A stretch of 63,744 nt of DNA from a virus (IMGVR_UViG_3300032132_000006:1-63744); one strand, 5' to 3'. Positions 9,588-57,015 are shown, counted from the stretch's first letter. The notes: a model not told the origin generated them from the letters alone. A program made the numbers and translations.

Positions 9588-10514
9588 TTACTTAAAGCCT
9601 TCTAAGAAAGCCTCATGTGCTGTCTGATCCCGTCTAGCTTCACCCTCGCTGGAACTCTTGGTTGCAGCAGTGTTCATGCTTAGACGATCTCTTTTTGCCT
9701 TAGCCTTTTTAGCTGGAGCAGCACGATGTTCTTTGTACTGGTCGAGCATTTCTTTGGCGTCAGACACCTGATTGCTGTTATACAATCGGCCTTTCGAGTC
9801 AGCCCATTCAGGGTACTGCTCTAAAAAAGTAGCCATCATTATACCAGCTTCTGGATCTTTTGCACGTTTTGCCTCTTCATATCGCAGAGCTTCTGCAATA
9901 GGCGGGCCTTCAGCGTACAAATATTCATAGAATTCTTCGGTACCTACATCTGTTTTCCAGTCCTTATGCGCCTTGTTTAGCTCACGCATATCTAGCCGGT
10001 AATTGAATTCATCTTCCGACATCGACTCAGGGATAACAATCTCTGACAAGATATCTTGCTTGGTTATCTCTGCTGCCCTATTGATACCGTTATGGAATTC
10101 AGCGAACTCCTCTTTCAGCTCTGACAGCTCTTCATCGCTATCCAATAGTTCCTTTAGCTGCTTTTTGGCTTCGACAGGATCCGCAGGCTTTGCTCCCAGC
10201 TCTTGTATACGCGCCTTCAGCTCACCGTTCTTACCCTGCATCTGACGGATGGTCTTACGCATCTCTGCCATTTGCTCTGATAAGCTGGGTTCTTCAGCTT
10301 GGTCACTTTCATCACTAGCTTGGTCAGTTTCTTCTTTGGATTCAACGTCTTCGGTTATGTCAGCGACATCAGTGTCGTCAACATCAGGAGTGTCAGGAAC
10401 ACCATCAGACTCGTTAGCGAATTCAAGCGCGAATGCAGCCTGCTCTTCAGCCGCTGCCTGTGCGTCCACTTCTTCCTGTGTTTGTTCCGGTGCGCCTGTG
10501 TCTTCTTCCGTCAT
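9588..10514 (-). CDS. Capsid scaffolding protein
   Basis: Very acidic N-terminus, coiled coil, HxDW motif, AFLEGF end; directly upstream of the capsid gene. Confidence 0.75.
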   Translation of the reverse strand: MTEEDTGAPEQTQEEVDAQAAAEEQAAFALEFANESDGVPDTPDVDDTDVADITEDVESKEETDQASDESDQAEEPSLSEQMAEMRKTIRQMQGKNGELKARIQELGAKPADPVEAKKQLKELLDSDEELSELKEEFAEFHNGINRAAEITKQDILSEIVIPESMSEDEFNYRLDMRELNKAHKDWKTDVGTEEFYEYLYAEGPPIAEALRYEEAKRAKDPEAGIMMATFLEQYPEWADSKGRLYNSNQVSDAKEMLDQYKEHRAAPAKKAKAKRDRLSMNTAATKSSSEGEARRDQTAHEAFLEGFK

Positions 10515-10522
10515 CTTGCCCC

Positions 10523-10783
10523 CTATGATCTGCTCATGTTTTCTACACTTACATCAGTGTTTGGTTTAATCTTTGCTAATAGTGTACGATTTTCAGCTAT
10601 TCTACCACGTAACCAAGCTGTTTTGAACTCATCAAGAGGTTTGTCGTTTTTCTTACGCAATGTCTCTATCTCGTCCTCAAGGTATCGGATGATCTCATGG
10701 GCAGTAGTGCCGCTGTGGTTTATCTTGTTTTGATCTATCCTGCCGGCCGCAAGAGTTGGGTGTAGCTTTTGTGGTGGTTTCAT
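10523..10783 (-). CDS. Small head-module protein (type usually found between portal and scaffold)
   Basis: YLEDEIETLRKKND...TAWLRGRIAE motif; upstream of the scaffold gene. Confidence 0.6.
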   Translation of the reverse strand: MKPPQKLHPTLAAGRIDQNKINHSGTTAHEIIRYLEDEIETLRKKNDKPLDEFKTAWLRGRIAENRTLLAKIKPNTDVSVENMSRS

Positions 10784-10956
10784 TTCTGCTTAACCTCGTT
10801 GTCGGTTTCTGCTCGCAACCAACAATCAAGCAAAGCATTGTTGGCAATGTGCCAAGTGGCTGAAAGCTGAACATTACCCCTTGATACAACATCCTGATGG
10901 TCTTTTATGTGGTACATAGCCTGCTTTAATATCTCTAATCTCTCTGCGTCAGTCAT
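10780..10956 (-). CDS. Hypothetical protein, 58 aa (MTDAERLEILKQ...), not in ORF track
   Basis: GAGGAG RBS; its TGA overlaps the ATG of the next gene. Confidence 0.65.
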   Translation of the reverse strand: MTDAERLEILKQAMYHIKDHQDVVSRGNVQLSATWHIANNALLDCWLRAETDNEVKQK

Positions 10957-37646: not shown

Positions 37647-37872
37647 AGATGAGTTTGCTGAGGTTGTAAAGCAAGAGATCGCCAGCATTGGGAGCCAGCA
37701 TAAGGCATCATTTGAGTGGGGTATGAACCAGCCTGAGATAAGTAAATGGCTGAGGAGCAGGGACGAACCGGCAAAGGGGGAAGTGAGGCCACCCAAGAAA
37801 ATAATAGAAGCCCTTGGATATCAAGAGGTTAGGTACATTACTAGGGCGTACATAAAGAAAATGCCCCAGTGA
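37627..37872 (+). CDS. Cro/XRE-like HTH protein
   Basis: GSQHKAS.EWGM.QPEISKWL...P.KKIIEALG; loosely similar to 29068-29289. Confidence 0.6.
   Translation: MDDEINEDEFAEVVKQEIASIGSQHKASFEWGMNQPEISKWLRSRDEPAKGEVRPPKKIIEALGYQEVRYITRAYIKKMPQ
37652..37670 (+). repeat. 19-bp direct repeat, copy 2
   Basis: Exact copy of 36162-36180. Confidence 0.9.
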
Positions 37873-38004
37873 AGGGGCAAGAACAGATAAGGATCAACCT
37901 CCTGTTTAGTGCGTCGGGTAAGACCGATAAACGGCAAGCCTAGATTACCACATCAGCCCACTGCAATCCAGATTTTTGTAGTGGGTTCTTTATGTCTCCA
38001 AATC

Positions 38005-38013
38005 TGGTATAAT
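38005..38013 (+). promoter_or_regulatory. Extended -10 promoter TGgTATAAT for the surface-protein/portal operon
   Basis: Perfect extended -10 ending 34 nt upstream of GTG 38047. Confidence 0.65.
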
Positions 38014-38046
38014 CACTCCATTTACCTCAATGAATATGGGCTATCT

Positions 38047-39687
38047 GTGGGCGACGTAATAGTTAATAGCGCTACTATCACACTGAAAGATCATGGTGGC
38101 GGGACGTATGGAAGTACGGATGCTCCAGTTGCAGATTTTCAATTGCCTGTTGGGAACTACGAAGACTCAAAGTTGACGATGGCTGTCAATGCGCCAAGAC
38201 CAGATGTAGAACGAACAACCAATAGTCGCTACTCGTACATGCACTCAGGTATGGAAAACGCTATGCCTATTGTTGTGCTGGGCGGGGCATACCCTTATCA
38301 CTACGAGATCACATCTAACACAGGTACGGCTGACACATCAACCGCAACTATAGGCGAGACTAGAACATACGACACTGACAGAGACTGGTACGGTTCCGAT
38401 AATCAAAAGGACTATGGGATATTTCGATGGACCCCTACGGGGGATGATGGGGAGACTTACGACTTCACAATAACAGTCACAGGTCAAGATGGTGTCTCCA
38501 TAGATGTAGAGTTCTCAGGTGTAGTGGAAGACTCCAAATTTATATTCGTAGACCCAGTAGGCGGTGACGATGCTAACGCTGGAACCCTAGCTGCTCCGTT
38601 TGAAACAAACGATCATTGGTATATTAATGCGACTGACGGTACGTATGCTGATAAATTTGTGGTTTGGCGAGCTGGGCTACAGACACAGATCACAGGCGGT
38701 CGATTAGCGGGAACATATAAGCCACATGTTTATATTGCCTTTGAAGGGGACGCACAACCCACGTATGACGGCACGATTAGAGATCACCATTTTGAGGGCG
38801 GTGAGTCTTCTCCTGATTTCTTTTGGGCTGGCATACGAGTGAATGGGAGCAGGTCTGATATAGCAGAAAGTAGGTGGTTTGAAGTCTATGGCGGCTCAGG
38901 TTTTGATCGTGCTGTATTTTGGAACAACTACTTTTATGATGCGGATTCGGGAACAGTAGGTACGGACAATGAGGGATGGATTTCGTTTAGATCAGGCACG
39001 TCCAGAGAGTACCTATCCGTAGTAAGTAATACATTTGATACTGCCCCCATTTCAACAGATAACAACGGCTTTGATAGCGTTAGGTTGTACGATGTAACTG
39101 AGTATGTATTTGAGCATAACGTCATCAAGAACTTCACTGGCAGCACTCTAATACAACCAAAGGACTCCATCTTTAATATGTCCATCAGAGCCAATGACAT
39201 GTGGGAAGGAAATACAAATACTCATGGCATAATTATCACAAATCAGAACGGTGGAAACAATCATGAAGTATGCTGGAACTGGGTGCTGAACGATCATGCT
39301 GTGTATATAAATTCAGCAAATAACTCCGTAGATATGAAAGATGTATTCATTTTTAGAAACACACTATCAGGAGAGCCTGCTGGTGGGGTTCATGCCATTG
39401 ACTTGTTTGGTGGAGCGGGCACACCCTTCGGAGACTTGGTGGAAGTAGAGGCGAATGTATTGCTGAGTAACGATGGTGGAGAACATGTTGTACGAACGGG
39501 CAGCTCGCCAATTACAGGTAGCCCCTTCACAGACTCAGAAGCTCAAGCGTTCTTTACAGGCAGTACTTTCGACAACACTCTATATGACTTAGATACTCAG
39601 ACAGATGTCAACATGACAACAGGCAAGCTCCAAAGTGGCGGGCTTACTCATTTAGGCTCATACGGCGCGGAGATTAGCTCAACATGA
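38047..39687 (+). CDS. Putative virion surface protein A1: Ig-like domain plus parallel beta-helix (pectate-lyase-like)
   Basis: GGAYPYHY...YDFTITVT Ig-like region; FVDP..GDD.N.GTL.APF motif; Asn-ladder repeats; start set by identity with the 40916 N-terminus. Confidence 0.65.
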   Translation: MGDVIVNSATITLKDHGGGTYGSTDAPVADFQLPVGNYEDSKLTMAVNAPRPDVERTTNSRYSYMHSGMENAMPIVVLGGAYPYHYEITSNTGTADTSTATIGETRTYDTDRDWYGSDNQKDYGIFRWTPTGDDGETYDFTITVTGQDGVSIDVEFSGVVEDSKFIFVDPVGGDDANAGTLAAPFETNDHWYINATDGTYADKFVVWRAGLQTQITGGRLAGTYKPHVYIAFEGDAQPTYDGTIRDHHFEGGESSPDFFWAGIRVNGSRSDIAESRWFEVYGGSGFDRAVFWNNYFYDADSGTVGTDNEGWISFRSGTSREYLSVVSNTFDTAPISTDNNGFDSVRLYDVTEYVFEHNVIKNFTGSTLIQPKDSIFNMSIRANDMWEGNTNTHGIIITNQNGGNNHEVCWNWVLNDHAVYINSANNSVDMKDVFIFRNTLSGEPAGGVHAIDLFGGAGTPFGDLVEVEANVLLSNDGGEHVVRTGSSPITGSPFTDSEAQAFFTGSTFDNTLYDLDTQTDVNMTTGKLQSGGLTHLGSYGAEISST

Positions 39688-40916
39688 CATTCCCAACGGT
39701 TAATGATAGCAGCACGTATGAGACTTTAAGCTATCTCACAACACATCCGATCACAATGCCCTCGACGATTAATTCGGGGGAGCTGCTTGTCTGCTTTATG
39801 ACTACATCAACCTCCGCAGGCACCGGCCCAGCCCTAGCAGGATGGACAGAAGTTGTTGGAGAATATGGCACTGTTGGGATATCTGATTGCTATGTATTTG
39901 CAAAGGTGGCTTCTGGTTCAGAGGGGGCTACAGAATCCTTTGTGATGGATAATGGTTGTCGGATGGCAGCTATAACCTTGGCTATTACGAGTTGGGAAGG
40001 GACGCTTAGTGGTGTAGAATTCTCAGCAGACAATACGGCTACCGACGCCGCACCCGACACGCTAACGCTCACTCCCAGCTGGGGATCAGACGATACGTTG
40101 TGGGTGTCACAGGTATCTCTAAGACGAGGTAGAACAGTTAGCGTATATCCATATGCAGACAATAACACCTATATCTCCTCTGGGACGAGTAATGGCAACC
40201 CTGCTATGTTCTTGGGCTCTGATGAAATTGCTGCCGCCACTGAAGACCCTAGTGCCGCCACCATAAGCGCGTCTACTGACTGGTGGGGCATCACAATGGC
40301 TGTTCAACCAGCCGCAGGTGGCGCACCCACATTATCACTACCAACTGAAGCAAGCATAACTTCAACTACAGTAACAGTTGGATGTACTTCTGATGATGCT
40401 ACTGGGACTTTATATTACTACATATCTACCAGTGGCACAGCACCAAGCGCATCTGATCTTAAAGATGGAACAAGCTCTGTTAAGTTTGGCAATACGGCTA
40501 GTGTAACGGCGGGGCTTAACACATTTGCTGTTACTGGGTTGACTGCGGAGACAACGTATTACACTTACTTCATTCAAAACGATGGAGCTTCTGATTCTAA
40601 TATCTTAGAGTCTGGATCGTGGGCAACCGTTGGAACTACTATCACAGGCCCAGCTACTATAGTTGAGGGCACAGCAGACACAGCAGATGGTACTGGTCTT
40701 ACAGTTATAAACGCACTAACCATTCAGATCAATGACGACTCGTATTCGATTGAACAAACAATGGGTACGCAAACAGAAACAACCATAGCGTTCACGCCTG
40801 AGTCTGGGGTTAATGATTGTGTAGCAGGAACACCAGCAGCAGGGGTTCCGTTAGAACCTACAATCACAGCAGCAGGAATAACTGCTTATCAATTAGAAAT
40901 AAAGGTTGAAGAATAG
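39684..40916 (+). CDS. Putative virion surface protein B1 with an Fn3-like domain
   Basis: T/S/G-rich; VTGLTAETTYY Fn3 tyrosine-corner motif. Confidence 0.65.
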   Translation: MTFPTVNDSSTYETLSYLTTHPITMPSTINSGELLVCFMTTSTSAGTGPALAGWTEVVGEYGTVGISDCYVFAKVASGSEGATESFVMDNGCRMAAITLAITSWEGTLSGVEFSADNTATDAAPDTLTLTPSWGSDDTLWVSQVSLRRGRTVSVYPYADNNTYISSGTSNGNPAMFLGSDEIAAATEDPSAATISASTDWWGITMAVQPAAGGAPTLSLPTEASITSTTVTVGCTSDDATGTLYYYISTSGTAPSASDLKDGTSSVKFGNTASVTAGLNTFAVTGLTAETTYYTYFIQNDGASDSNILESGSWATVGTTITGPATIVEGTADTADGTGLTVINALTIQINDDSYSIEQTMGTQTETTIAFTPESGVNDCVAGTPAAGVPLEPTITAAGITAYQLEIKVEE

Positions 40917-41851
40917 TGGGTGACGTAATAGTAAATTCAGCTACGATAACCTTAAAGGATCATGGTGGTGGCGTGTATGGGAGCGCCAACCCCTCCGTTG
41001 CTTTAGATACGCCTGATCTTGTGCTTGATGGTTTTGAGACAGGTGATTTAACAGCGCCCAATTCTGGGGATGGCGTAAACACCATCGGGTTTAGCTGGGA
41101 CTCGACTAACGGGACATCCATAGCTAACAAGACCACAGTTATCTATAACTTTAGCGGGGTTGTTAGCATTCCCTTGGTTAACCCAGACCCTGACGATTGG
41201 GATCCACAAACTGGGGATAATAGCTTTCGAGTCTACTATGGCCCAGCAGATGATTGGTCTGAGCAGCGATTCGATACAACCACTCCACAAACTTCTTTGT
41301 ATGTAGGCTACTGGATAATGGTGCCAACGAATTACACAAGGGTTAATGACGGGCCACAGAACAACAATAAGTGGTTCGACATCTTTTGGGGCAACATCGC
41401 AGGATGGCCCACAGATTACTCAAACTCAAACCTACCTCGCTTAGAAATGCAGGACATAGCAGGCAGTGCTGGTGCTTGTAATATGCAGATGCAAGTCCGG
41501 CAACAAGGCGCAGGCACGATACAAACCAGCAGCTCACACTCTGACTTTATAACAGAGGCAGACGCAGGCAGATGGATGCACTGTATGTACTACCTTGGAG
41601 AGTCTAGCGGGACAGACGTAGCAGACGCAGAAGTTAAGTTTTGGCGCAGGTGGGAGGATGATGCCGGTTACACCCTTATATGCTCTCTAGATAGTTTAGT
41701 TATACAGAATACAGTTGGCGAAGGTGTCAATGGCTGGTCTGGTGGCTACTTAATGGGCTTTCTAAACGATCCCTTTGTGGATGCGTCAGTTTGGATGATT
41801 GATGATTTCAGTTGGTGGTCTACTGACCCCACAAGCGGAGTACTTCCATAA
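40916..41851 (+). CDS. Putative virion surface protein A2, ConA/polysaccharide-lyase-like jelly roll
   Basis: DGFETGD, WSEQRF, LYVGYW..VP.NY, NNNKWF, GRWMH and WMIDDF motifs. Confidence 0.6.
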   Translation: MGDVIVNSATITLKDHGGGVYGSANPSVALDTPDLVLDGFETGDLTAPNSGDGVNTIGFSWDSTNGTSIANKTTVIYNFSGVVSIPLVNPDPDDWDPQTGDNSFRVYYGPADDWSEQRFDTTTPQTSLYVGYWIMVPTNYTRVNDGPQNNNKWFDIFWGNIAGWPTDYSNSNLPRLEMQDIAGSAGACNMQMQVRQQGAGTIQTSSSHSDFITEADAGRWMHCMYYLGESSGTDVADAEVKFWRRWEDDAGYTLICSLDSLVIQNTVGEGVNGWSGGYLMGFLNDPFVDASVWMIDDFSWWSTDPTSGVLP

Positions 41852-43287
41852 TGGCAACACACATAATAGGGACAGGTGGTGATTACACTACATTAGCAGC
41901 AGCAGAGGCAGCACTAACGCTACCAGAGGCTGGCGGTACAGTCTATGAGATAACAGGTACGTTGACAGCAGTGCCTACATTTACTGGCGCGAACTACGAT
42001 AACGGATTAACACTAACTGCTAAAACTGGCGAAGAGTGCGACGGTAAAGGCAATGGTGCTTTTATAGATGCAGATGTAGCTACAACTCTGTACTCTCGCG
42101 CATTCACAATTAGTGATCTACGAGTCCGTTCACTAGATGTTTCAAACATTCGGCAAGCAGGTAGCACAGCGGATAAGTGCGTGTTCGGCGAAAACTGTAC
42201 AACAGATGTACTTGTCCATAACTCACAAACAAAACTAGATTTCACTGATTGTATTATTCAAGATGGTAGCGATGATGGAACATATCAGTCGCAAATAGCG
42301 AATAGCGAGACTTTTGTTCAATGCACGTTCGTTGACGCTGCTCGCTATAATGCTATGAGGGTTCACTGTACCGACTGCTTAAGTATTGGCGCAGGTACAG
42401 GTGACTTCTTTGACTTGGCTACAGGCTCAGACTATAACGCATCAGAAGATGCTACAGCGACAAATACTAACTCTATCACTGGCAGGTCAACAACAGACCT
42501 TGAGGACTATGCTGGTGGCAATTACAACCTTGCTAGTGGTTCCTCACTGAACACGTCTGGCAGTGGTGGTGGTAGGATAGGGGCGTTTATTTCAGCGACA
42601 GCATCAGCACCAGTCTTATCCCTCCCAACAGAAGCGTCAATCACCTCAACCACAGTAACCGTAGGCGCAACTACAGACGACGACACCGGAACGCTTTACT
42701 ACTACATTTCTACCAGCGCATCTGCTCCCAGTGCAGCTAACCTAAAGTCTGGATCTGGAGCGGTTAAGTACGGCAGCGATGCAAGCCTTAGTGTTGGAGC
42801 GAACACCTTCGCAGTAACGGGCTTAACATCTGCGGTAACCTACTACACGTATTTTGTGCAGAATGACGGGGCTAGTGACTCTAACATACTTGAATCAGGT
42901 AGCTGGGTTACTGAGGGTGTTGTTGCTAACATACAGTTTGATCCTGAAACAACACATGATGTTATTCAGGCAATGACAACGGGTGATGATGCAGCAAATA
43001 CTACTGATGGCGAAAGTATATTTGCGAGTACAATACTGACAGTAGAAGATAACCATATCGCTCATGTTCCAAAGTCCGTCAATGGTATGAACATTACTTG
43101 GGCAGCAAACGGTACATTTACAACTGACGCAGATCAAACAGAAAATATTACAGCTTCATACTGGGCACCATCAACTGGTAATTGGAGCTGCATCACTTTA
43201 ACGATTGACGATACTGCTGTTAATGTGGCCACAACTGTTACGACATCACCAGCAACCCGATCACGACTTAACTTATATAGACAATAG
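41851..43287 (+). CDS. Putative virion surface protein B2: beta-helix plus Fn3-like domain
   Basis: IG.GGDYTTLAAAEAA start; YNASED.TA; Fn3-like domain about 76% identical to that of B1. Confidence 0.65.
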   Translation: MATHIIGTGGDYTTLAAAEAALTLPEAGGTVYEITGTLTAVPTFTGANYDNGLTLTAKTGEECDGKGNGAFIDADVATTLYSRAFTISDLRVRSLDVSNIRQAGSTADKCVFGENCTTDVLVHNSQTKLDFTDCIIQDGSDDGTYQSQIANSETFVQCTFVDAARYNAMRVHCTDCLSIGAGTGDFFDLATGSDYNASEDATATNTNSITGRSTTDLEDYAGGNYNLASGSSLNTSGSGGGRIGAFISATASAPVLSLPTEASITSTTVTVGATTDDDTGTLYYYISTSASAPSAANLKSGSGAVKYGSDASLSVGANTFAVTGLTSAVTYYTYFVQNDGASDSNILESGSWVTEGVVANIQFDPETTHDVIQAMTTGDDAANTTDGESIFASTILTVEDNHIAHVPKSVNGMNITWAANGTFTTDADQTENITASYWAPSTGNWSCITLTIDDTAVNVATTVTTSPATRSRLNLYRQ

Positions 43288-43298
43288 AGGTAATACCC

Positions 43299-43814
43299 AT
43301 GGGACAAGTACAAGACGTAGCGGTACAGTTTCACACCCACCGCGCAGTTGAGTCGTTAACTCGACCATCTAACACAACAGCATATGCAGCAGGGGATGTT
43401 ATCTCTGCCGTTACGACTAATGATCACTTTACTTTTGCAGGAGCGGTAAGAAACGGAACGAAAAGCAAGCAGCTTGGCGGTGCCTTTGTTACCGCAAGGC
43501 TACATAGCTCTTCAGCGGTGGCTACCAGCTTGGACGCAGAGTTATATTTGTTCTCTGCCGACATTGCTGAGGTTGCAGACAATAGTGCATTCGCGCCTAC
43601 AGATGACGAGATGCTCACCTGTATTGGTGTGATTGATTTCCCTACTGCTGATTGGAAATTCGGAACGCTGAATTCTTTCTGTCAGGTAACTAATTTAGGG
43701 ATAGCTTTCAAGGCAGCCACCACTACCATTTATGGTCAGCTTGTTGCTAGAAATGCATACGTTCCAACGTCAGCAGAAGTGTTCACCATTGAACTAATAA
43801 TCTCGCAGGACTAA
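43299..43814 (+). CDS. Putative structural protein
   Basis: TRPSNTTAYAAGDVI and AYVPTSAEVFTI motifs; beta-sandwich character. Confidence 0.55.
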   Translation: MGQVQDVAVQFHTHRAVESLTRPSNTTAYAAGDVISAVTTNDHFTFAGAVRNGTKSKQLGGAFVTARLHSSSAVATSLDAELYLFSADIAEVADNSAFAPTDDEMLTCIGVIDFPTADWKFGTLNSFCQVTNLGIAFKAATTTIYGQLVARNAYVPTSAEVFTIELIISQD

Positions 43815-43817
43815 GGC

Positions 43818-46079
43818 ATGGATAACTTACAGATCACAGACGCACCGAATGAAGATGTGGGGGAACCCATTGACGGCGAAATGACACAGGAGCAAATCGA
43901 GCAGCTTGATAAAATCGGTTTGGCACTTGCGGAGTCTAGATCTGAAGCGATCAAGCACCGCGCAGCTTCTGGTATTGAGCAGGACTGGGTTGAGGATAGA
44001 GAACACTACGAAGGTATTGATGAAGCCAATCGATCTGAGATTGGGTCTGGCGATACCAAGCCCGTAGGCAGGATTGCAGCAGGCACTGATGATGAGTCAG
44101 GGTCAACTGTATTCTTTAATATCACTCGCCCTTATTGTGACACAGCAACAGCCCGCTTAGGTGATATGTTATTACCTACAGACGATATAGGCTGGTCATG
44201 TGATCCAACCCCTATTCCTGATCTGGTTAATATGGCTGGTGGTAAAATACCTCGCCGCATAGAAAGGCAGATAAAAGAGCAGGTGCCTGACGAAGAAGAA
44301 GCAGCGGCAGTCATGCAGCAGGTTATCGAGCAAGAGAAGGACATTCTTGATGAGGCAAAGACAGCGGCAGAGAGAGCATCGAAGCGTATTGAGGATTGGC
44401 ATGTAGAGTGTCAGTACAACGCAGAGATGCGTATCGTAATTGATGATGCTGGGCAGATAGGAACGGGAGTAATGAAAGGCCCGATTCCTGAAAACAAAAA
44501 GCGTATGGCTTATGTGGGTGGTGAGATAATAGAGCAGGAAGAGCTTCAGCCTGTATCCAGAAGGGTCTCTGCTCATAACTGTTATCCAAACGCCTCTTGT
44601 GGCAATGACATTCAGGACGGGAACGACCACTGGGAGAAGGACGATATCTCCGAGAAGCAGCTACAAAACCTAATCGATCAGGACGGCTACATTGAATCCC
44701 AGATTAGAGCCTGCTTAAAAGAGGGTCCATTCCAAGCTACTGAGATTCAGAACGAACTCGATGACGGTGATCAGTTTGGATTGACACGAAGAGACAAGAC
44801 CAACCTGTACCAAATTTGGTACTACTATGGCCGATTAAAGAAAGAGATTCTAGAGTCTGCCGGTATGGATCTTGATGTGGATGAGGATGACTTCCCCAAC
44901 ATCGACGTACATTTAGTCATGGTTAACAACAGGGTAATTCGTGGGGCACCCAATGCAACAGCCAACGGTGATTTCCCGTATGACTACATGGTATGGCAGT
45001 CACGCATAGGAAGCCCATTTGGGATAGGAATAGCCCGTCAAATACGAGTGCCACAGCGAATTATCAATGGCGCTGGGCGAAACCTAATGGATAACGCAGG
45101 ACTCGCTGGCGGGCCTATGTGGGCCTTTAATCAGGGTATACTAGAGCCTATAGATGGAACCTATGAGATAGCACCAAGGAAAGGATGGTTTATCAGTGAG
45201 GATGCAGAGAACGTCACCGACATCAAACACGCCTTTAGTTTCTTTGGTATGGACATGATGCAAGATGATCTACAGGCAATCATTAACTTAGGGATGCAGT
45301 TTGCTGAACATATCTCTGGACTACCTAGTTTATTGCAAGGACAGCAACAAGAGCACAAGGAAACATTAGGCGGCCAGCAGATGCGCCGAAATGATGGGTC
45401 CACAGTTCTACGCAGAATCGTCAGGCAGTTCGATGACAAGATAACAATCCCTCATATTAATAGATATTACAAATACATCCTGATGTACGGAGAGGAGGAT
45501 GAGAAGGGTGACTTCACTATCTTCGCTCGCGGATCCTCTGCCTTGCTTGAGCGGGATCTACAGAACGAATCCATTATGGAGATGGGACAGTATGTCGGCA
45601 ATCCGATCTTTAAGAAAGATCCTGCCAAGTGGATCGATGAGCTACTGAAGTCTCAGCGGCTGGATCCAAAGAACTTCAATTACGATGATGAAGAGTGGCA
45701 GCAGTTGGTCGAACAGCTCAGCGCACCACCACCAGATTCTTCTGTTGAGGTTGCTAACATTAAGGCCCAGACCACCCAGATGCAGATCCAATCCAAAGCG
45801 GCTACCGATACTGCGATTATGCAGAACGATAACCAGCAGAAGGATGCTGATAGAATGCTTCAGTTAGAGAAGATGACCTCTGATGCAGAGCTACAATTGA
45901 TCGCACTACAGGGTCAGTTGGCCGGCAGCAAGGACGTTAATATGGATAGCATCAAAGCCAAGCTTACTGAGACTATACTGACACTCAAGGCGCAAGTAGC
46001 CATGAATGACTCAGATGTAGCCACACCAGTAGCAGAGCCTGATGGAAGGGCACCAGATGGTGAGAGCTTCGAGAAGTAA
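43818..46079 (+). CDS. Portal protein
   Basis: FFNITRP.C..A.ARL.DML.P.DD..W, GTGVMKGP, GSPFG.GI, R.LMDNAGL.GGP, ET.GG motifs; long C-terminal helical region. Confidence 0.9.
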   Translation: MDNLQITDAPNEDVGEPIDGEMTQEQIEQLDKIGLALAESRSEAIKHRAASGIEQDWVEDREHYEGIDEANRSEIGSGDTKPVGRIAAGTDDESGSTVFFNITRPYCDTATARLGDMLLPTDDIGWSCDPTPIPDLVNMAGGKIPRRIERQIKEQVPDEEEAAAVMQQVIEQEKDILDEAKTAAERASKRIEDWHVECQYNAEMRIVIDDAGQIGTGVMKGPIPENKKRMAYVGGEIIEQEELQPVSRRVSAHNCYPNASCGNDIQDGNDHWEKDDISEKQLQNLIDQDGYIESQIRACLKEGPFQATEIQNELDDGDQFGLTRRDKTNLYQIWYYYGRLKKEILESAGMDLDVDEDDFPNIDVHLVMVNNRVIRGAPNATANGDFPYDYMVWQSRIGSPFGIGIARQIRVPQRIINGAGRNLMDNAGLAGGPMWAFNQGILEPIDGTYEIAPRKGWFISEDAENVTDIKHAFSFFGMDMMQDDLQAIINLGMQFAEHISGLPSLLQGQQQEHKETLGGQQMRRNDGSTVLRRIVRQFDDKITIPHINRYYKYILMYGEEDEKGDFTIFARGSSALLERDLQNESIMEMGQYVGNPIFKKDPAKWIDELLKSQRLDPKNFNYDDEEWQQLVEQLSAPPPDSSVEVANIKAQTTQMQIQSKAATDTAIMQNDNQQKDADRMLQLEKMTSDAELQLIALQGQLAGSKDVNMDSIKAKLTETILTLKAQVAMNDSDVATPVAEPDGRAPDGESFEK

Positions 46080-46132: not shown

Positions 46133-46158
46133 AAAGCCCCTTAATTGGGGCTTTTTTT
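46133..46158 (+). terminator. Intrinsic (possibly bidirectional) terminator after the portal gene
   Basis: AAAGCCCC-ttaatt-GGGGCTTTTTTT between convergent operons. Confidence 0.85.
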
Positions 46159-46173: not shown

Positions 46174-46260
46174 ATGCGAATAGACTGGAATACAGTTGGT
46201 TTTTATTTTGTTTTAACGGCTATCATCCTGAATGCCGTCCTTCCTATTGTGATGGATTAG
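46174..46260 (+). CDS. Putative leaderless 28-aa membrane peptide MRIDWNTVGFYFVLTAIILNAVLPIVMD
   Basis: TGgTATAAT at 46160-46168 and ATG 5 nt later; single hydrophobic helix. Confidence 0.4.
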   Translation: MRIDWNTVGFYFVLTAIILNAVLPIVMD

Positions 46261-49200
46261 CTTTGTCGTAGTTCTTATTAAATCTATCCACGATAACCTC
46301 TATCCTTTTCTCGAATCGCTCTATCCTTTTCTCTTTTATCTTGTCAGACAGATTACGAAGCTCAACCTCTTTGATTTGCTTCCGCAGATTACGAAGTTGT
46401 TTCTCGGCAGTCTTTAGGCGAGAGGCTTGTCTGAGCTGCCCAGAATATTCCTTCCTGAACTTGATCTTCTCTTTGCCCCTTAGCGTAGCTGACTCAGCAG
46501 TTAATTGCTTTATCTCGTCGGCCCTGTCATAGAACCTAGACTGGTCGCCATACTGCGCCACCTTGCCACTGATTTTGCGGTAGAAAGGCTTCTCCCTATC
46601 TTCAATCTCTTCACCAAGAATTGTCTTCTCAGCGTACCCAGCAGACAGTGATGCGAACTTACCTGCACCACCCGTAACAAAGCTGAACAAATGATCAAGC
46701 GTATCTGGGGATACATCAATGAATCCTTTTCTGAATGCGGATCCTCCAGTTGCTTCGTTTACAAAACTTGATACCGCCTCCCAGTGAGGTTTGGCGTTCT
46801 TCTTCGCTAGTGCGCTATCTGGCAACTGAACTCCGAATGCAAAGTTTTCTTTGAATATCGATCCTCCGTAGAAGTTTTCATTAACAGCTAGTTGAGCGAA
46901 TGGCTTGCCTACGGTTGGGGTAGCAGTTTTGATTGCCATCTTAGCCGCATCATCAGACGATTCAAATCCTAACGGAGAGAACGATCCAAGAATACTCATT
47001 GCGACATGAGTGCCTAGCTCACCATACCCGCGATAAGAACTATTTTTCGCAGCCTCTGCTGTATCACCCAGCACATAGAATATATTAAATCCGTATGGAA
47101 GCGGGATAGTCCAGTAGTCAGCAGGATCATCGCTACCACCAAAGACGGACTTCATTATAACTATGTTTCTTTCACGAACATGGTTAGGAACTTTGTCATA
47201 CCAGCTCACACCATCATCATCATCATCAGATGCCATTCGATTAATCGTCGCCAGCACATACGCAGCGGCCACAATACCAGCAGAAAATGCCTGCACTTTC
47301 TTGGACTTCATTGCGCGAAGGAGAACAGCACTACCTTGAATAGATGCGTTAGAGAACATATAAAGAGAATTCATTACTGCACCAACCTCACCCTTGCGGT
47401 TGAAGTTAACCGTTAGGTTCTTGGCTAATGATGCGGCCTTCTTTCTGGTTAGGCCAGCTTCAATCCCATGACGGTACACAGATAATCTAACTGCGTTCTC
47501 GACTGCGGTATTAGCATTCTCTACAAAGTCTTTGACGCCATCTTTAAAAACACGAAGATTACTTATAACCGACTTCCCTGTCTCAATAGATCCTGCTTTG
47601 GCTGTGGCTCTCCCAGTGGCTAAGTCTTTTATATTACTGATCACCTGCCCACTTCTGGCCATGGATACCATGGCGTTTAACTCACTCGCTTGCTGGTCTA
47701 TTTCTTTCATATCAAACCAGCCGGTCTTGGCACCATCTTCTCTGAATTGGTCAAACGACTGCTGCCATTCTAAAGCAGATCCAGTTAATTCCTTTCCTCT
47801 CAATGAGGCGTGTATAGCTCTCATCGCAGAAGGAATATCCTTCAGCATCTTGCCCACTAACTTCTTACCTTGCGCCCTTCCTCCGCGCAGATCCTGTTCT
47901 CCCATTAAAGCAAACACCGCAGTCTGTACGTCACGCGCCACGTTCGATACTAAGAACTCAGGGTTGTACGATGTACTCATGGCAGATAGGTATCGAGTCA
48001 TAGTTCCCAATGTCTGGGTGAATATGTTCATTGGCTCTGGACCCATGTTCTGCATGGCACGATTTAATCGCTGATCCTTAATGTGAATGAAGTAAGTTTT
48101 GCCGTCCTTCTTGGTGGCGTAGTATTTTTTAGACCCATCATCATTCTTGGCATCCAGCATATTCTCACTAACTTCATCTACCTCACCTTTAACCCAGCCT
48201 CTGGTCTTGGCAGGATTATCGTCAGAGAAAACCTCCCAGTACTCAGGGTTTGGATTATTCTCAACCATCTTGAGGAATACGTTACCAACATCATTTTTGC
48301 GTGAGCGTATAATCGTTTCGGTGATATCCTTGATAGCGTGAAGCGTAGGAGATTCAGCAGTGCTTCTGCGGCCCATAGCCTTTAAGGATTCTTTGCCACG
48401 AATATCGAAGCCCTTACCAATATTTCCACCAGTACTGCTTTCTTCATTTGTAGCAAGCCCCTTTAATGGGACGTAATTCTTATACGCTCCTTCCCACGCA
48501 TCTGTGATTTCGTTAGCCTGCAAGCCATCCCTCATGAGCTGACGCTTGTATTCAAGCATTCCATAAACATGGTCAGCCAACTCATTGAGCTGCGCTCGCT
48601 TAGAAGGAGTCACCATATTGAGAACCCGCTCTGCCTCCATGTCAGTCATACCAGAGCCGCCATCAGGCATCTCTCGATTAATCTTTCTTATGTGGGCGTT
48701 ACGCTCTTTAGCGTGATTGGCAATCAACCACTCATCCAGTTCCTCTCTTTCGACTTCGTATTTTGCCAGCCCTTCTGCTAACGGTTTGATTGAGCCTTCA
48801 GATAATACTCGAAGATCCTCTTCTGTCTTTCCGTAGAAAGCCTCTTCTGCCAAGTAAGTATTCTCAACCTCTGGAAGATCACCCCTTACTTTTTCGATTT
48901 CCTTTTGAGTCATCAACACAGGCCTAAACTTATCTTGGAATGTGCGGATAGCTGCACCAGTTAGTTTTTCTACTGGAGCATCGAAGCCATGTTCATCATC
49001 CAAGCTAAACAGAATATTATCGCTCTCTGTTTCTGTTGGATCAAAGGCTGCATTGACTGAGCGTATGTTTTTTGGGTCGAAGACAGCGACATCTTCTATC
49101 TCAGGATTCTGCTGCATAAAATCATTAACGTCAGTGTAACCTGTCACCTCTCCAATGCTATCACTGTACATATCTAAAGAAGTATAGGTGCCCGCCTTTT

Positions 49201-52200
49201 CTGCCGCATCCTTATAGGCTCTATTTAAGATTTCATCGTATTGAGTCTCAAGCTCCTTCACTGTATCTTGAGCCGGTTCCAGCGTCTGAGCGAGTTGGGC
49301 AATTTCTTCCTTTGTGACAGACCCAATATTATGAACAATCTTGTCTGTTATTTTTTCTACATCTCGTTGAGCGTTATTGAATTTACGGATCGTTAGCTTA
49401 TCCTGAGTGGATAATACAAGATTACGATCATTCACAGGGACGGCATTTTCAGACCAAGACATCGTTATCTTTTCACCAGTAGATGTTTCATAGCTGAACT
49501 CACCAGTATCTCTTAGGCTTTTTTCCACCTCTTCTCGCGTGAATGAGTCGCGACCCCGAACGGCGTGATCATATCCCATCTCTAGCAGATGCTCCCGCAC
49601 CTCAGTTCCCCCGCTCACTTGCCTAGCAACCTCCCGCCACACTTTATGTGGTGCGGCCTTTCCTAGCCGCAAATAAACTGGTGTAATTGTATTGCCGTCT
49701 ATACCATCGCGATATGCAGCTTGCACGCTTGGAGCTATACCGAACCAGTGGCCATTGAATGGCCTATCAGGGTCAGACGCAGGGAGGCGGTCATTATCAA
49801 ATCCAGCACCTTCTATGCCGCCAGTGTTCGCATGATAATAGACCGTACTGGTATCAAAGCCCTGCTCCTCAGCCCTAGCCATTCTAGATGCTTTATCCAT
49901 TGGTAGGTCTTTGTCTAGGCTGAATTGTTTTTCGGCCTGCCGTTGTTCGTCATTAACGGCCTCAATGGTTACAGCATTCTCATCCCATATGACGTAGTTG
50001 TGTGTGCCCTCGCCCTCTGTGCGACTTTGATTATCTAAATAGCGGAGTCCTTTGATGCCCAAGTCACCTAGAAATAAACTGGCTCCTCTTTCTTCTTTGG
50101 TGGTTGATATTGATAGGTTGCCTTTCGCAACCCCTTCGTACAAGCTCTTCCCGTCCATGTTCCAGAACGCAGATTCCTGTTCATTGATCCAGTCTTGCGC
50201 TCCCTGCTTGGCAATCTTGGCAGACCCTATGAATTCCAACCTTACTTTTTTACCGTCGCGAGTAACATCGACTGCAAATGTTGGACCGCCATCATAATCA
50301 AGGAATTTCTTCCTTAGTCTTTCTGGGGCATCAGAGTACTTGTCATACGGGTACGGCTCTCCGGCCTTGCCTATTTTGGAGGCACGCAGTCTCTCTGGGA
50401 GAAGTTTGTTTAGCTTACTTACATTCTTTTGTATGGCGCTCTTGACCATCTCAGGTTGCTGACTAAGCTTCTTATCCCAATCCAACAGCTCGTTATCTTC
50501 TGGTATGTCTACTTGGTAGAGTTGGCCATGCGCTTTAATTGTAACCGAATCAACATCAAAGTCCTTAAGCTTGCTCATCCCCTTTGCCTTAAACTCAGCG
50601 TTAGTAACCCTAAATGCGTCACCCACAATCTCAGTTAGCACCTCATCCCATGTAGTAGAGCCGTCTTGAATAGCACTCATCACCAATGGATCACGCTTGA
50701 TGTGTGCGACTTCTCTTGCTATAAATTCTTCAGGGGTTTTCGGGAATCCCATTTTATCCCCGTTGAGATAAATATCGTAACTTCCTTCGCTTAACTTATC
50801 CCGATACCATTCAGCAATATTCTTCCTGCCAGCAAAGTACATTCCCCAGCCATAGGCTTGAGCGCCTTCACCAGATCCCATCGCATCCAAACTAAATTTG
50901 TCAAACACATGAGGTGTGCCGTGGTAAGCAGTCATCCACTCAGGAATAAGCGACCCTATGCCAGCCTCTTGTGGGCCTGCCAAGAACTCTTCAGATCGAG
51001 ATAGGATAAGATCAATGTTCGTCATACTGATTGGATTAAAGCCCAAGGCGCGTAATGCATTCTTGAGCATCTCGCGTACCTTACGCATGAACGATCCAAC
51101 CACTCCATCCTTTGCTCTCTGCTCAGCAGCAATGGCAATGAACTCTTTGATTAATGTCTCTCTGGATGCGTTTGGATTTCTCCGTATCGCCTCTGCTCTG
51201 ATAGCATCGAAATTCTTGCCGCCCTTCTCCCTTAGCGAATCATATAGATCGCCAACAGCAGACCAGTCTTCGATAATATTATTTACACCAACATGACCAA
51301 TAAGCTCATGAGCAAGAGTGACCTGTGCGTCCTGTGTATTTTCTAGGTGATCAACAACAATGGTTGCTGTGTCGCCTATAGCGAATCCTTTAGGGCGTTT
51401 GCCTTTAGGGATTGCAGCTTGGACTGACTCAGGTAATTCGTGAGAATAAAGTATTTCAACTTTCACGCCCAGCTTATCACTAATGTTCTCTAACATAGGA
51501 GCAACAGCGGCAACAGCTTGGTCTTTGGTAAACTTAGTTTTAGCCTTACCTTGGAGAGAATTCTCTACTCGTAGTTGTGGCCCTTGTACTGTTTCGGTAT
51601 CAGGTGTTGTGGGAGCTGCTGTCTCTCTTCCGCTCCCAGATCCTGTACTGACTTCGCCTCTGGGTGTGCCAGTTCCAGATAGTTCTTCAGAGTAACTGGA
51701 ATCTGGTTTGCTTTCATCCATTGTTCCAACTGATCCGATCCAGTCTGGTTCGTTGATCCCGCCTGCATGTTCATGAATAATACTCCTCGTTTCTTCTAGT
51801 GTTGCATCACCTGCCTTGTATTTTTCCCAAGCAGCTTTAGCAAATTCTGTGTTTTTCTTTTGCCCTTTATATCCAGCAGTAAATAAACCTCTCACCGCCT
51901 CCCATGTAATGGACTGCATCTGTCTTGGCAATATGCCCCGCTCTGCCGCTGCTCTTCTGTATGCCTCAGCAAAGAAAGGATAGGTTCCACTTAATCCTGC
52001 AACAGTAGATCCTGCGCTACCAGTACCACCAAGATTCTGCTCAACTTCTTTTGACTTTCCTGATAGTGGCTGAATTAATCCCGCGCCAACAGCATGAGTG
52101 TCTATCGTTACGTCACCATGCTTTCCATTGGGAGAGATGATATTGTTGTAAAAGTTTCTTACCTTGTGAGCGCTACCCATGGATGCACTAATGTTTTCCA

Positions 52201-54259
52201 TGCTTGGATCACGAAGGACTGACACAGCCTTGGTTATTTCACTTAACGATCCCCAGCCGGTAGCTTTACGCTTTCCGACTTTACTTACCGCCCAGTCAAG
52301 GAAGTATCCTTCTGGAGATATAATCTTGTGGCCTCTAGGGTGGTGAGCTTCATCATAGGCTCTGATCCATGCTGCTGCCTCAACATTGTTCTCAATATTG
52401 GACAGTGACTTGCCTCTAATGTTTCCATGCAGGATCTTGTTAGCGTCAGAATAATAAATCCTATTCGCAGCATCTTCCATCTCAGGAGTCCAGATGGTGT
52501 CTTGGTTATTAGTAAATACGTCCAGCACTCTTTCGGCCAAACTTACATTCATAAACCAATCTTTCTGTGGACTCAATGATGCCATTACACCAGCAATAGC
52601 TGTGTCCTGAATACCGTATTTCTCTGACCATCTGTCAGCAATGTTTCTAGCACCGTCATACCATAGGTGACTACGCTCTCTTGTATCTGCTGGAACGCGA
52701 TCATACAACCAAAGAAGATTATCTTTAACGTGATCTATAAAGAATTCAGCCAACGCACTATGGGTTGATCCCTCTGGTGCAGGTCTTGAATTTGAATAGC
52801 TAGATACCAGCTCTGCATTTTTACCAAATGATTTAGGCTCGCTCTTAGCTGCCTCTAACCCAACAACTAAGTTTTGCTTTATTGGATCCTCAACTGGCTT
52901 CTTGGAAGTAGGATACCTAGTAGAAATACCATCGTCATCTCTGGCTAAACTAAATTGAACCTCTTCCCCTTCTCTTCTAGGAAGATCCTGTGGGCCGTCC
53001 TTATTTAACTCAGTTACTTCTGCGTCAGATAATATGCGAACGACTTTCATCTCGCCGCCAATCATCCACTCACCCGTCATGTTAGGGTTTGTTTTGTACT
53101 TGTAGTACCCGCCAGTAGGAACCTGATCTGTTATATGGGCGGTACCCACATTCATGGTTCCATCTTTCTTTTTGGTTGCCCGCTTATTAGCTTCTGTCTG
53201 CCAGTCAACATCATCACGCATTTGGATCTCTGCCCATACATGATATTGTGGCCGGTAGTCTGGAGCCTTGGCCCCTTTGGATTTGCCGCCAATGTGAGAG
53301 GCCACTGGTTTTGTTCCTGCGTGCCACCCACCCCTAACAGCGAGAGGCCCGATAGATGACTTAACTTTACCCTTGTCTGTAAGTGCGCCCATCTCTGCAT
53401 TCACCCATGTGCCTACTGGGACAGACTGGTTGCTATTAACAAATAGCGGGAACAATTGATTTGGCGATTTCTTTTTGGTCTTGAATAACTTATAAGCAGT
53501 GACCGTCTTGCCGGTTTCCTGATCATCGTCAAGACTCCACTCGATAGTCTCACTATCCTTGACACTCTGCTCTGCTTCAGCATTGACTTCTTCTTGTGTC
53601 GGCTGGGCTTGCTTGGCACCCTTCAGCTCCATATAAACAACATCAGGCGTTCCGTCAGCCTCTTCCCATCCTTCGGGCTTATACTGCTCATCCCACGTAT
53701 CTCTGCCCACTTCGACAAAGCCATGCTTGGCATATGACTTGGTAAGGAATCCCTCGAAAGCATCCAGCTTAGTTGCGCCTAATTCAATTGCTTTTGGCAT
53801 TAGGGTATCGAGCAATCCTTTGACATTGGAATCAGCAGACTTAAAGACAGAAACTAGATCGCCATCGCTCTTGATAGCAAAGCCAATTAATCCATCTGCT
53901 GACAGGTAATTGGTCATGTCTGCGTATTCGGCCTCACTGTACTGATGCACTGAGCCGCCATGAGGCAAAGTCTCTTTAGCCTTCCCGATAGCCTTGTGAA
54001 ATTTAGATGCTGTGACGGGCTTAAATGAGGGCTTAGCAGACTGCCCTCTGGTTGGGGCAATACCACCCGCTTTGGTGATTTGATCTACCGCATTGGTGCG
54101 CTCTGTCCTAATCTCTTTGGTAAGGTCGGCAACAGCAGATTCATCAGCTTCGTCTTTGTTATAGCCCTCTTCAATATACATCTTCGACAGATCTTTGGCG
54201 CGTGCAGCGTCCTCTGCCGTAATGTTCAGTTTCTTTATGCAAGATGCGAGTGAAGCCAT
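46244..54259 (-). CDS. Giant polyvalent injected protein (GNAT-like, HhH-glycosylase-like, zincin metallopeptidase, two ART-like domains, LPD38-like C-terminus)
   Basis: LDAF..FL..SY..HGF; LSPQ..W..NV and VTIDTH; AHELIGH; YHGTPH.FDKF...GEGAQAYGWG.YF; YYHANT...VFDPKNIRS.NAAFDP; VNFNRKGE...YMF.NA.IQG. Confidence 0.85.
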   Translation of the reverse strand: MASLASCIKKLNITAEDAARAKDLSKMYIEEGYNKDEADESAVADLTKEIRTERTNAVDQITKAGGIAPTRGQSAKPSFKPVTASKFHKAIGKAKETLPHGGSVHQYSEAEYADMTNYLSADGLIGFAIKSDGDLVSVFKSADSNVKGLLDTLMPKAIELGATKLDAFEGFLTKSYAKHGFVEVGRDTWDEQYKPEGWEEADGTPDVVYMELKGAKQAQPTQEEVNAEAEQSVKDSETIEWSLDDDQETGKTVTAYKLFKTKKKSPNQLFPLFVNSNQSVPVGTWVNAEMGALTDKGKVKSSIGPLAVRGGWHAGTKPVASHIGGKSKGAKAPDYRPQYHVWAEIQMRDDVDWQTEANKRATKKKDGTMNVGTAHITDQVPTGGYYKYKTNPNMTGEWMIGGEMKVVRILSDAEVTELNKDGPQDLPRREGEEVQFSLARDDDGISTRYPTSKKPVEDPIKQNLVVGLEAAKSEPKSFGKNAELVSSYSNSRPAPEGSTHSALAEFFIDHVKDNLLWLYDRVPADTRERSHLWYDGARNIADRWSEKYGIQDTAIAGVMASLSPQKDWFMNVSLAERVLDVFTNNQDTIWTPEMEDAANRIYYSDANKILHGNIRGKSLSNIENNVEAAAWIRAYDEAHHPRGHKIISPEGYFLDWAVSKVGKRKATGWGSLSEITKAVSVLRDPSMENISASMGSAHKVRNFYNNIISPNGKHGDVTIDTHAVGAGLIQPLSGKSKEVEQNLGGTGSAGSTVAGLSGTYPFFAEAYRRAAAERGILPRQMQSITWEAVRGLFTAGYKGQKKNTEFAKAAWEKYKAGDATLEETRSIIHEHAGGINEPDWIGSVGTMDESKPDSSYSEELSGTGTPRGEVSTGSGSGRETAAPTTPDTETVQGPQLRVENSLQGKAKTKFTKDQAVAAVAPMLENISDKLGVKVEILYSHELPESVQAAIPKGKRPKGFAIGDTATIVVDHLENTQDAQVTLAHELIGHVGVNNIIEDWSAVGDLYDSLREKGGKNFDAIRAEAIRRNPNASRETLIKEFIAIAAEQRAKDGVVGSFMRKVREMLKNALRALGFNPISMTNIDLILSRSEEFLAGPQEAGIGSLIPEWMTAYHGTPHVFDKFSLDAMGSGEGAQAYGWGMYFAGRKNIAEWYRDKLSEGSYDIYLNGDKMGFPKTPEEFIAREVAHIKRDPLVMSAIQDGSTTWDEVLTEIVGDAFRVTNAEFKAKGMSKLKDFDVDSVTIKAHGQLYQVDIPEDNELLDWDKKLSQQPEMVKSAIQKNVSKLNKLLPERLRASKIGKAGEPYPYDKYSDAPERLRKKFLDYDGGPTFAVDVTRDGKKVRLEFIGSAKIAKQGAQDWINEQESAFWNMDGKSLYEGVAKGNLSISTTKEERGASLFLGDLGIKGLRYLDNQSRTEGEGTHNYVIWDENAVTIEAVNDEQRQAEKQFSLDKDLPMDKASRMARAEEQGFDTSTVYYHANTGGIEGAGFDNDRLPASDPDRPFNGHWFGIAPSVQAAYRDGIDGNTITPVYLRLGKAAPHKVWREVARQVSGGTEVREHLLEMGYDHAVRGRDSFTREEVEKSLRDTGEFSYETSTGEKITMSWSENAVPVNDRNLVLSTQDKLTIRKFNNAQRDVEKITDKIVHNIGSVTKEEIAQLAQTLEPAQDTVKELETQYDEILNRAYKDAAEKAGTYTSLDMYSDSIGEVTGYTDVNDFMQQNPEIEDVAVFDPKNIRSVNAAFDPTETESDNILFSLDDEHGFDAPVEKLTGAAIRTFQDKFRPVLMTQKEIEKVRGDLPEVENTYLAEEAFYGKTEEDLRVLSEGSIKPLAEGLAKYEVEREELDEWLIANHAKERNAHIRKINREMPDGGSGMTDMEAERVLNMVTPSKRAQLNELADHVYGMLEYKRQLMRDGLQANEITDAWEGAYKNYVPLKGLATNEESSTGGNIGKGFDIRGKESLKAMGRRSTAESPTLHAIKDITETIIRSRKNDVGNVFLKMVENNPNPEYWEVFSDDNPAKTRGWVKGEVDEVSENMLDAKNDDGSKKYYATKKDGKTYFIHIKDQRLNRAMQNMGPEPMNIFTQTLGTMTRYLSAMSTSYNPEFLVSNVARDVQTAVFALMGEQDLRGGRAQGKKLVGKMLKDIPSAMRAIHASLRGKELTGSALEWQQSFDQFREDGAKTGWFDMKEIDQQASELNAMVSMARSGQVISNIKDLATGRATAKAGSIETGKSVISNLRVFKDGVKDFVENANTAVENAVRLSVYRHGIEAGLTRKKAASLAKNLTVNFNRKGEVGAVMNSLYMFSNASIQGSAVLLRAMKSKKVQAFSAGIVAAAYVLATINRMASDDDDDGVSWYDKVPNHVRERNIVIMKSVFGGSDDPADYWTIPLPYGFNIFYVLGDTAEAAKNSSYRGYGELGTHVAMSILGSFSPLGFESSDDAAKMAIKTATPTVGKPFAQLAVNENFYGGSIFKENFAFGVQLPDSALAKKNAKPHWEAVSSFVNEATGGSAFRKGFIDVSPDTLDHLFSFVTGGAGKFASLSAGYAEKTILGEEIEDREKPFYRKISGKVAQYGDQSRFYDRADEIKQLTAESATLRGKEKIKFRKEYSGQLRQASRLKTAEKQLRNLRKQIKEVELRNLSDKIKEKRIERFEKRIEVIVDRFNKNYDKANPSQ

Positions 54260-56705: not shown

Positions 56706-57015
56706 CCCCGTACTCCACGTTCATATCTGCACTTTCAATTCTGTTCTGGCCATTACGCTCAATATTTCCAATGTGGACCGTCTTGATTAATGGCCTATCG
56801 CCGGCCGATATATTTATACCCTTGATGGCCTCTATAAGTTGTTGATTTGTATCGATAATTGCATCCATCAGTTCTGTGGAATGGCCGGCCGTTTGCTGCG
56901 CTACAGTTGGAGCCGGTTTTGTAGGCGCGACCTCCGCTCTTTTCTTGGTAAGTATGCGGGTATCACCCTCATCCTTTAACCTAGAGTATTCGCTGTTGGA
57001 TATTCGTCTAGCCAC
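56698..57015 (-). CDS. Hypothetical protein
   Basis: Operon packing; ER..QNRI.S C-terminal hairpin. Confidence 0.55.
   Translation of the reverse strand: MARRISNSEYSRLKDEGDTRILTKKRAEVAPTKPAPTVAQQTAGHSTELMDAIIDTNQQLIEAIKGINISAGDRPLIKTVHIGNIERNGQNRIESADMNVEYGDE

Follow-up and report, generated by a model that had tools for sequence, protein, structure and literature searches.

A shared N-terminal peptide as a probable docking plug for exchangeable surface proteins in an uncultured marine podovirus-like phage

In the podoviruses K1-5, K1E, and SP6, the adapter gp37 accompanies tailspikes that bear a conserved N-terminal hepta- or undecapeptide (PMC6872550). K1-5 uses two differing peptides, which bind two sites of an adapter of ~300 residues with a T4gp10-like domain. 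In the Klebsiella phages KP32, K11, and KP34, a conserved peptide of the secondary receptor-binding protein (RBP), RBP2, docks on the T4gp10-like branching domain of RBP1 (PMC6872550); the KP32-group A peptide is 29 residues long. The docking peptide and branching domain pair has been validated experimentally by engineering (PMC13352976). A related arrangement is described here for the virus record IMGVR_UViG_3300032132_000006, whose entire 63,744-nucleotide stretch is referred to as the window. At 38047-43287 on the plus strand, the window carries a cassette of four genes, A1-B1-A2-B2, in which the proteins A1 and A2 begin with nearly the same peptide of 23 residues. This peptide is probably a common docking plug that fixes exchangeable heads to the virus particle.

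A1 (546 residues; 38047..39687, GTG start) is composed of the peptide, a predicted Ig-like (He_PIG-like) region, and a predicted right-handed β-helix body. A2 (311 residues; 40916..41851, plus strand, GTG start) is composed of the peptide, ~75 unmodelled residues, and a predicted jelly-roll core. A reading of the locus from its sequence alone (the sequence-only reading) held that A1, from GTG 38047, and A2, from GTG 40916, both begin MGDVIVNSATITLKDHGGG(T/V)YGS with 22 of 23 residues identical despite many synonymous changes and then diverge, and each of these observations is borne out. BLASTP aligns the two N-termini with 22/23 identical residues (24/29) at E 5e-11 and finds no other A1-A2 similarity better than E 2.2; a Gly-rich linker follows the peptide. 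The two plus-strand copies (23 codons each, at 38047..38115 in A1 and 40916..40984 in A2) form direct repeat D1 (68 nt, 76% nucleotide identity), and a six-frame scan of the window yields these copies only, with the next best score at 31 against 93. Twelve of the 23 codons differ synonymously, 10 are identical, and one differs non-synonymously; 52/69 nucleotides are identical, non-synonymous divergence (dN) is 0.097, and synonymous divergence (dS) is saturated. Because dS is saturated and the codon differences are synonymous, conservation acts on the protein and not on the DNA, and on this codon comparison the peptide is shown to be under purifying selection at the protein level.

A search for the peptide on other N-termini, which the sequence-only reading had proposed, found 16 proteins that start with it. 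A 30-column profile was made from A1, A2, and their homologues in L015 and L018 and was searched against 1,835,955,588 representative proteins with a cut-off of E<=1e-3. It returned 17 matches, 16 of which begin at residue 1 of their protein. The seventeenth, P0054, was judged a false positive, as it is an unrelated repeat protein whose six internal repeats are what the profile picks up. The bodies of 14 of the 16 true matches were compared (P0045 and P0050 were too short and were dropped), and the carriers, A1, and A2 together form 11 groups without BLAST similarity between them. These 11 groups include β-helix and lyase-like jelly-roll proteins. P0047 matches Pfam Beta_helix above the cut-off and P0052 matches Polysacc_lyase below it, and no family was found for 11 of the 13 carrier bodies scanned against Pfam. 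A literature search for the peptide strings returned no paper containing them. The A1 frame is open back to 37909, upstream of GTG 38047, and the A1 homologues in L015 and L018 as well as 16/16 true peptide matches start exactly at the equivalent M-G; GTG 38047 is therefore likely the true A1 start.

The peptide varies between phage lineages. Most profile matches bear a second variant, MGNVIVSNITRTPVENGSNWGS..., the peptides of P0053 and P0055 resemble the window variant, and that of P0051 is intermediate. This second variant, in the form MGNVIVSNITRTP..., is common to P0002, L015, and L018, whose A1-type bodies are 70-73% identical to A1, and to P0032, whose A2-type body is 56% identical to A2. 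A1-type bodies at 42-64% identity have quite different N-termini, and A1-family bodies with different N-termini reach 55-73% identity. P0006/L016 (290-2209) have an FN3 domain at this position and P0009/L017 (291-1928) have ~40 unrelated residues, while more distant A2 relatives (34-39%) have N-termini that resemble signal peptides when read by eye. As peptide variants and bodies combine differently, peptide and body are separate modules. Across the proteins compared, the peptide follows phage lineage and the body is exchanged, and in the second lineage alignment shows that the peptide changes in concert on A1-type and A2-type bodies. The A1 family (homologues 42-73% identical) is present at five loci in metagenome contigs; it was not found in viral contigs, which also gave no match for the peptide patterns of the window variant or the second variant.

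The sequence-only reading had proposed interchangeable heads on one plug, and this part of it is supported by the residue-1 position (16/17), the 11 unrelated bodies, the selection on the peptide, and its concerted variation. A1 and A2 would sit on the surface of a marine podovirus-like phage as receptor-binding or depolymerase-type proteins, and the peptide of ~23 residues with its Gly-rich linker would fix any body to one conserved site on the particle. New heads would be gained by recombination, with the attachment chemistry unchanged. Both A proteins would be made from one late operon with coupled B partners, would attach to one kind of site, and would probably decorate the same virion. 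The socket site would co-evolve with the peptide, which would account for the lineage-specific peptide variants. The peptide itself probably docks as an added β-strand or hairpin.

Several points weigh against a docking plug. Binding and socket are predicted from sequence, and only gene position places A1 and A2 in virions. The peptide region of A2 is unstructured in its AlphaFold2 model, with a predicted local distance difference test score (pLDDT) <50. Pfam and PHROG reveal no T4gp10-like or T7-fibre-like anchor family in A1, B1, A2, B2, or open reading frames (ORFs) of at least 150 residues, and assign no family of any kind to A1, B1, A2, and B2. The same plug on two proteins would make them compete for one kind of site, unlike the peptides of K1-5. 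Finally, the peptide might act in a different shared step, for example trimer nucleation or chaperone recognition.

The bodies of A1 and A2 may be glycan-active, on fold-level leads. The sequence-only reading had assigned a β-helix to A1 and a jelly-roll lyase or lectin-like domain to A2; both assignments stand at the level of the fold and as leads only, through the language-model neighbours of A1 and the structural matches of A2. The neighbours of A1, which are likewise leads only, are He_PIG and right-handed β-helix proteins (scores 0.92-0.84). He_PIG matches A1 at E 0.024, below the cut-off, and is carried by a distant A1 homologue. The AlphaFold2 model of A2 (pLDDT 58.5, predicted template modelling score 0.64) has a confident core at residues 100-305 and pLDDT <50 over the first 98 residues. 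Foldseek matches this core to PL14 and PL36 alginate lyases, the Chlorella virus vAL-1 lyase, glucuronan lyase, and legume lectins, with E 1.8e-7 to 1e-4 and template modelling (TM) scores of 0.4-0.56. Default thresholds gave no match for A1, B1, A2, or B2 in Pfam, PHROG, or the PDB sequences, and at E<=5 the four proteins gave sub-threshold hints only.

A1, B1, A2, and B2 follow one another head to tail, overlapping by 4, 1, and 1 nt, and a gene for a 171-residue protein and the portal gene come next. B1 (410 residues; 39684..40916, plus strand) has an ATGA overlap with A1 and contains an N-domain (39684-40298), an FN3 module (40299-40634), and the C-domain B1C (40626-40913). B2 (478 residues; 41851..43287, plus strand) contains an N-domain (41851-42582), an FN3 module (42583-42918), and the C-domain B2C (42919-43284), and ends ...LNLYRQ. 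A gene with an overlapping start lies directly 3′ of the A gene in 6/6 visible cases (window A1 and A2, L015, L016, L017, and L019), and in 3/6 of these cases it has BLAST-detectable B modules.

Because the only clear plus-strand terminator-like site, a hairpin and T-run at 46133..46154, lies after the portal gene, the four cassette genes are probably co-transcribed with that gene in one late operon. The other plus-strand terminator-like site is a weak hairpin of three G-C pairs inside A1 (38247-38268). Terminator-like sites number five against 5.4 expected in shuffled sequence and are hence weak evidence. The extended -10-like element TGGTATAAT (38005..38013, plus strand), read from the sequence 34 nt upstream of the A1 start, is a possible cassette promoter; a consensus promoter scan does not list it, and it has no -35 match. 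The presumed co-transcription with the portal gene is the sole ground for calling the A and B proteins virion proteins.

In two other seawater runs, short contigs with 80-99% likeness match the window at 37784-38027 and 42925-45741, which correspond to the DNA just upstream of A1 and to the B2 C-domain, the 171-residue protein gene, and the portal gene. One contig departs from the window sequence at 38027, which is 20 nt short of the A1 start. These two runs have no contig on the stretch from A1 to the B2 FN3 module and none that bridges it, from which no conclusion is drawn. DNA inversion or head switching is unsupported, as no meaningful inverted repeats flank the cassette genes.

The B-type proteins are mosaics that consist of a variable N-domain, often an FN3 module, and C-modules of two kinds, B1C and B2C. 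Residues 206-317 of B1 and 245-356 of B2 are 72% identical (81/112, E 6e-42; 207/336 nucleotides), with saturated dS. Fold-level evidence gives this shared module an FN3 fold: VIA-align matches it (B1 211-319 and B2 245-356) to FN3 domains with middling Z values of 7.7-6.4 over 86-102 residues, its Atlas feature neighbour is fn3 (score 0.79), and Pfam Pur_ac_phosph_N matches at E 0.01, below the cut-off. Because the proteins are conserved while dS is saturated, the peptide and the FN3 module are old and kept by protein-level selection. Recent duplication or gene conversion of the peptide or the FN3 module is ruled out by the saturated dS, and a DNA-level signal is an unlikely explanation for them. 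The FN3 module was not found in viral contigs or metagenome contigs.

N-domains of the B1 type are present in P0012, P0023, and P0026, L019 has a Laminin_G_3 domain, and others occur elsewhere; these domains are read as lectin-like or β-helix modules on FN3/Ig-like stalks. P0012 (309 residues) joins a B1 N-domain directly to B1C and has the same end point as B1. P0013, P0015, and the L019 B protein (9563-10843) each have B1C followed by B2C in one chain, and the arrangement of B1C (40626-40913) and B2C (42919-43284) in the window looks like such a tandem into which A2 and the N-terminal part of B2 were inserted. Comparison of the B1C, B2C, and FN3 profiles by hhalign shows no relationship (probability <=0.7%), and equivalent C-terminal sockets on B1 and B2 thus have no support, B1C and B2C being unrelated by this measure. 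B2 (43267-43284) and P0014 both end ...LNLYRQ, and P0013, P0015, and P0019 end in tails of alternating hydrophobic I/G/L residues; these recurring tails may be a second, C-terminal attachment motif.

Chaperone-usher pili are assembled by donor-strand complementation and exchange through a short N-terminal extension with alternating hydrophobic residues. The A peptide might similarly be a donor strand or hairpin that is inserted non-covalently into an Ig-like module, B1C or FN3, of a co-translated B protein, an arrangement that is unlikely here. If it were so, the A-B pairs would be split fibres, and a group of uncultured marine podoviruses would mount at least 11 glycan-active heads via one strand-insertion socket. 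The likeness to chaperone-usher pili is one of idea only: the setting is a phage particle and not assembly in the periplasm, and no chaperone or usher family was detected with PHROGs and/or Pfam among 37 window proteins (the four of the cassette and 33 other ORFs), which counts against donor-strand assembly.

A further explanation, which is improbable, has the peptide dock on the FN3 module common to B1 and B2, with A1-B1 and A2-B2 as parallel heterocomplexes whose subunits would be made in equal amounts via translational coupling. Peptide and FN3 are the sole elements common within the cassette, both are conserved as proteins with saturated dS, and the overlapping gene after the A gene in all six visible cases accords with coupling. 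The FN3 module is also 56-74% identical over many architectures of B-type proteins, which mirrors the spread of the peptide over many bodies. Nevertheless, it stays conserved where the peptide varies between lineages, and BLAST shows no likeness of the downstream genes in L015-L017 to B1 or B2. FN3 is absent from P0012 and the L019 B protein, although the L019 A protein and P0003, the presumed neighbour of P0012, have N-termini of similar pattern.

The shared segment could instead be a different signal, for trimer nucleation, chaperone recognition, or targeting and cleavage, or a recombination or translation element at the nucleotide level, but the chance of this is slight. The extreme N-terminal position and the Gly-rich linker would suit a signal, as would the unstructured A2 N-terminus in the model. 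A nucleotide-level role is unlikely given 52/69 identical nucleotides against 22/23 identical residues. Lineage variants common to unrelated bodies fit a co-evolving particle partner better than a generic folding signal, and the bodies resemble extracellular glycan-active enzymes rather than packaged internal proteins.

The sequence-only reading went further and took B1 as the virion anchor, with its last ~95 residues forming an Ig-like fold that lacks one strand, supplied in trans by the A peptide. Its remark that the B1 tail and the A2 head together look like the last two strands of one Ig/cadherin fold is an impression. B1 does end ...AYQLEIKVEE and the B1 TAG and A2 GTG have one base in common, as that reading had stated; even so, the proposed completion of the B1 C-domain has found no specific support and is quite unlikely. 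The peptide and the B1 tail both have the alternating hydrophobic and polar patterns typical of β-strands, and each of the three lineages with a BLAST-identifiable gene after the A gene (the window, L019, and P0012 as the presumed neighbour of P0003) has a B1C-type domain. P0012, with its N-domain and B1C, is similar in size to the K1-5 adapter of ~300 residues, and the L019 B protein has a weak IPT/TIG match over its B1C-type region (E 0.18, below the cut-off).

The opposing evidence concerns the peptide, the C-domain, and the gene junction. Natural B-A fusions, sought through the peptide profile as the sequence-only reading had suggested, are absent: 0/17 matches are fused behind a B-type domain, and none is a true internal copy. 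The L019 B protein, P0013, and P0015 each continue in cis beyond the ...AYxLxxxV strand, with a B2C-type domain next in the chain. A1 has a near-identical peptide with no upstream B gene, behind intergenic non-coding DNA, and the B1 tail (TAYQLE) is conserved in P0012, whose presumed partner peptide differs strongly from that of the window. Nothing sets the B1/A2 overlap apart: every cassette junction overlaps, and in both L018 and L019 the gene with the peptide overlaps the stop codon of a small, unrelated, membrane-like protein of 123-126 residues. The AlphaFold2 model of B1, which speaks for neither side on whether the C-domain is a complete fold, has a mean pLDDT of 52.6, with pLDDT <50 for the C-domain (314-410). 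Complex prediction with full-length B1 and A2 residues 1-45 gave an ipSAE of 0.00 in both runs, which were made without controls and speak neither for nor against binding. A TGA at 40907 closes the A2 frame two codons upstream of GTG 40916 and so rules out a B1-A2 fusion by frameshift or read-through.

The 63,744-bp virus record that makes up the window is complete and has direct terminal repeats; it encodes a major head protein, terminase, portal, SU10-type tail adaptor, and a giant protein of 2,671 residues. Its portal protein is at most 37% identical to those of the phage records compared, and the closest named relatives by portal (21-29% identity) are the marine or aquatic podoviruses of Pseudoalteromonas, Roseobacter (CRP), and Pelagibacter. 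On account of this low identity and these relatives, the window genome is podovirus-like, marine, uncultured, and only distantly related to known phages. A megablast search of phage records gave no match to the cassette.

The docking plug calls for a socket on the particle, for which the candidates are the SU10-like adaptor, its 799-residue neighbour, the 171-residue protein, and the conserved B modules. The tail adaptor or nozzle, or else the 171-residue protein, has a little less than an even chance of being the socket. A conserved B module is a possible but more tentative choice, within which the B1 C-domain is a poor candidate, and a socket of some other kind is doubtful. The SU10-like tail adaptor (236 residues; 5878-6588, minus strand) matches PF24175 at E 6.8e-13. 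The adjoining 799-residue protein (3479-5878, minus strand) is probably the tail nozzle; it is kept beside the adaptor in L011 (54-57% identity) and L002 (29-36%).

The 171-residue protein (43299..43814, plus strand) belongs to no family and is a candidate structural protein encoded between the cassette and the portal gene. Homologues are encoded immediately ahead of the portal gene in L005 (1694-2173) and L014 (8231-8710). In L011 (9227-9730), a homologue lies just before the tail-adaptor gene. By these positions, a small, presumably structural gene has shifted between portal-side and adaptor-side locations. The portal protein itself (43818..46079, plus strand; phrog_332 at 3.1e-37 and phrog_1216 at 3.2e-8) is encoded by the last gene of the same-strand run.

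Other large genes lie beyond the portal. The giant 2,671-residue protein (46244-54259, minus strand) matches phrog_616 over its final ~900 residues (E 4e-259). Large ORFs in L018 (1-3612, 1,203 residues, upstream of the A gene) and L019 (15283-17178, 631 residues, just after the portal gene) resemble it by eye only. A 904-residue protein (57008-59722, minus strand) contains a Zeta_toxin-type kinase domain at residues 604-700 (PF06414, E 9.8e-10) and weakly matches PHROGs for virion RNA polymerase and DarB-like proteins. This protein may be injected.

Almost no annotation exists for host recognition in uncultured marine phages. A recognisable N-terminal tag would allow RBP and depolymerase genes to be found in ocean viromes and would reveal a pool of exchangeable glycan-active heads, with 11 unrelated bodies so far. 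An unrelated lineage, with a peptide of its own and one plug on both proteins, would join the Klebsiella, E. coli, and Salmonella podophages for which plug-and-socket logic is known. Identification of the socket would aid the engineering or prediction of host range in these phages.

A1 and A2, as predicted RBPs that are otherwise unrelated in sequence, share a short N-terminal peptide, which is what characterises RBP systems with docking peptides. K1-5 and SP6 (PMC6872550) are like the window phage in being podoviruses with two glycan-degrading RBPs that have no large anchor and with short N-terminal peptides that recur on different bodies, although in the window the glycan-degrading activity is predicted. 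Unlike in K1-5, the same 23-residue peptide is present on both A proteins, it has no sequence likeness to the K1-5 peptides, and Pfam and PHROG detect no adapter or T4gp10-like domain in ORFs of at least 150 residues. In KP32, K11, and KP34, the peptide is confined to the secondary RBP, the primary one having a T7-like anchor. In the window, by contrast, both A proteins bear the peptide and have no anchor domain, and a coupled B gene with FN3/Ig-like modules comes after each A gene. The likeness to KP32, K11, and KP34 is that an N-terminal peptide varies by phage group while the bodies behind it are exchangeable.

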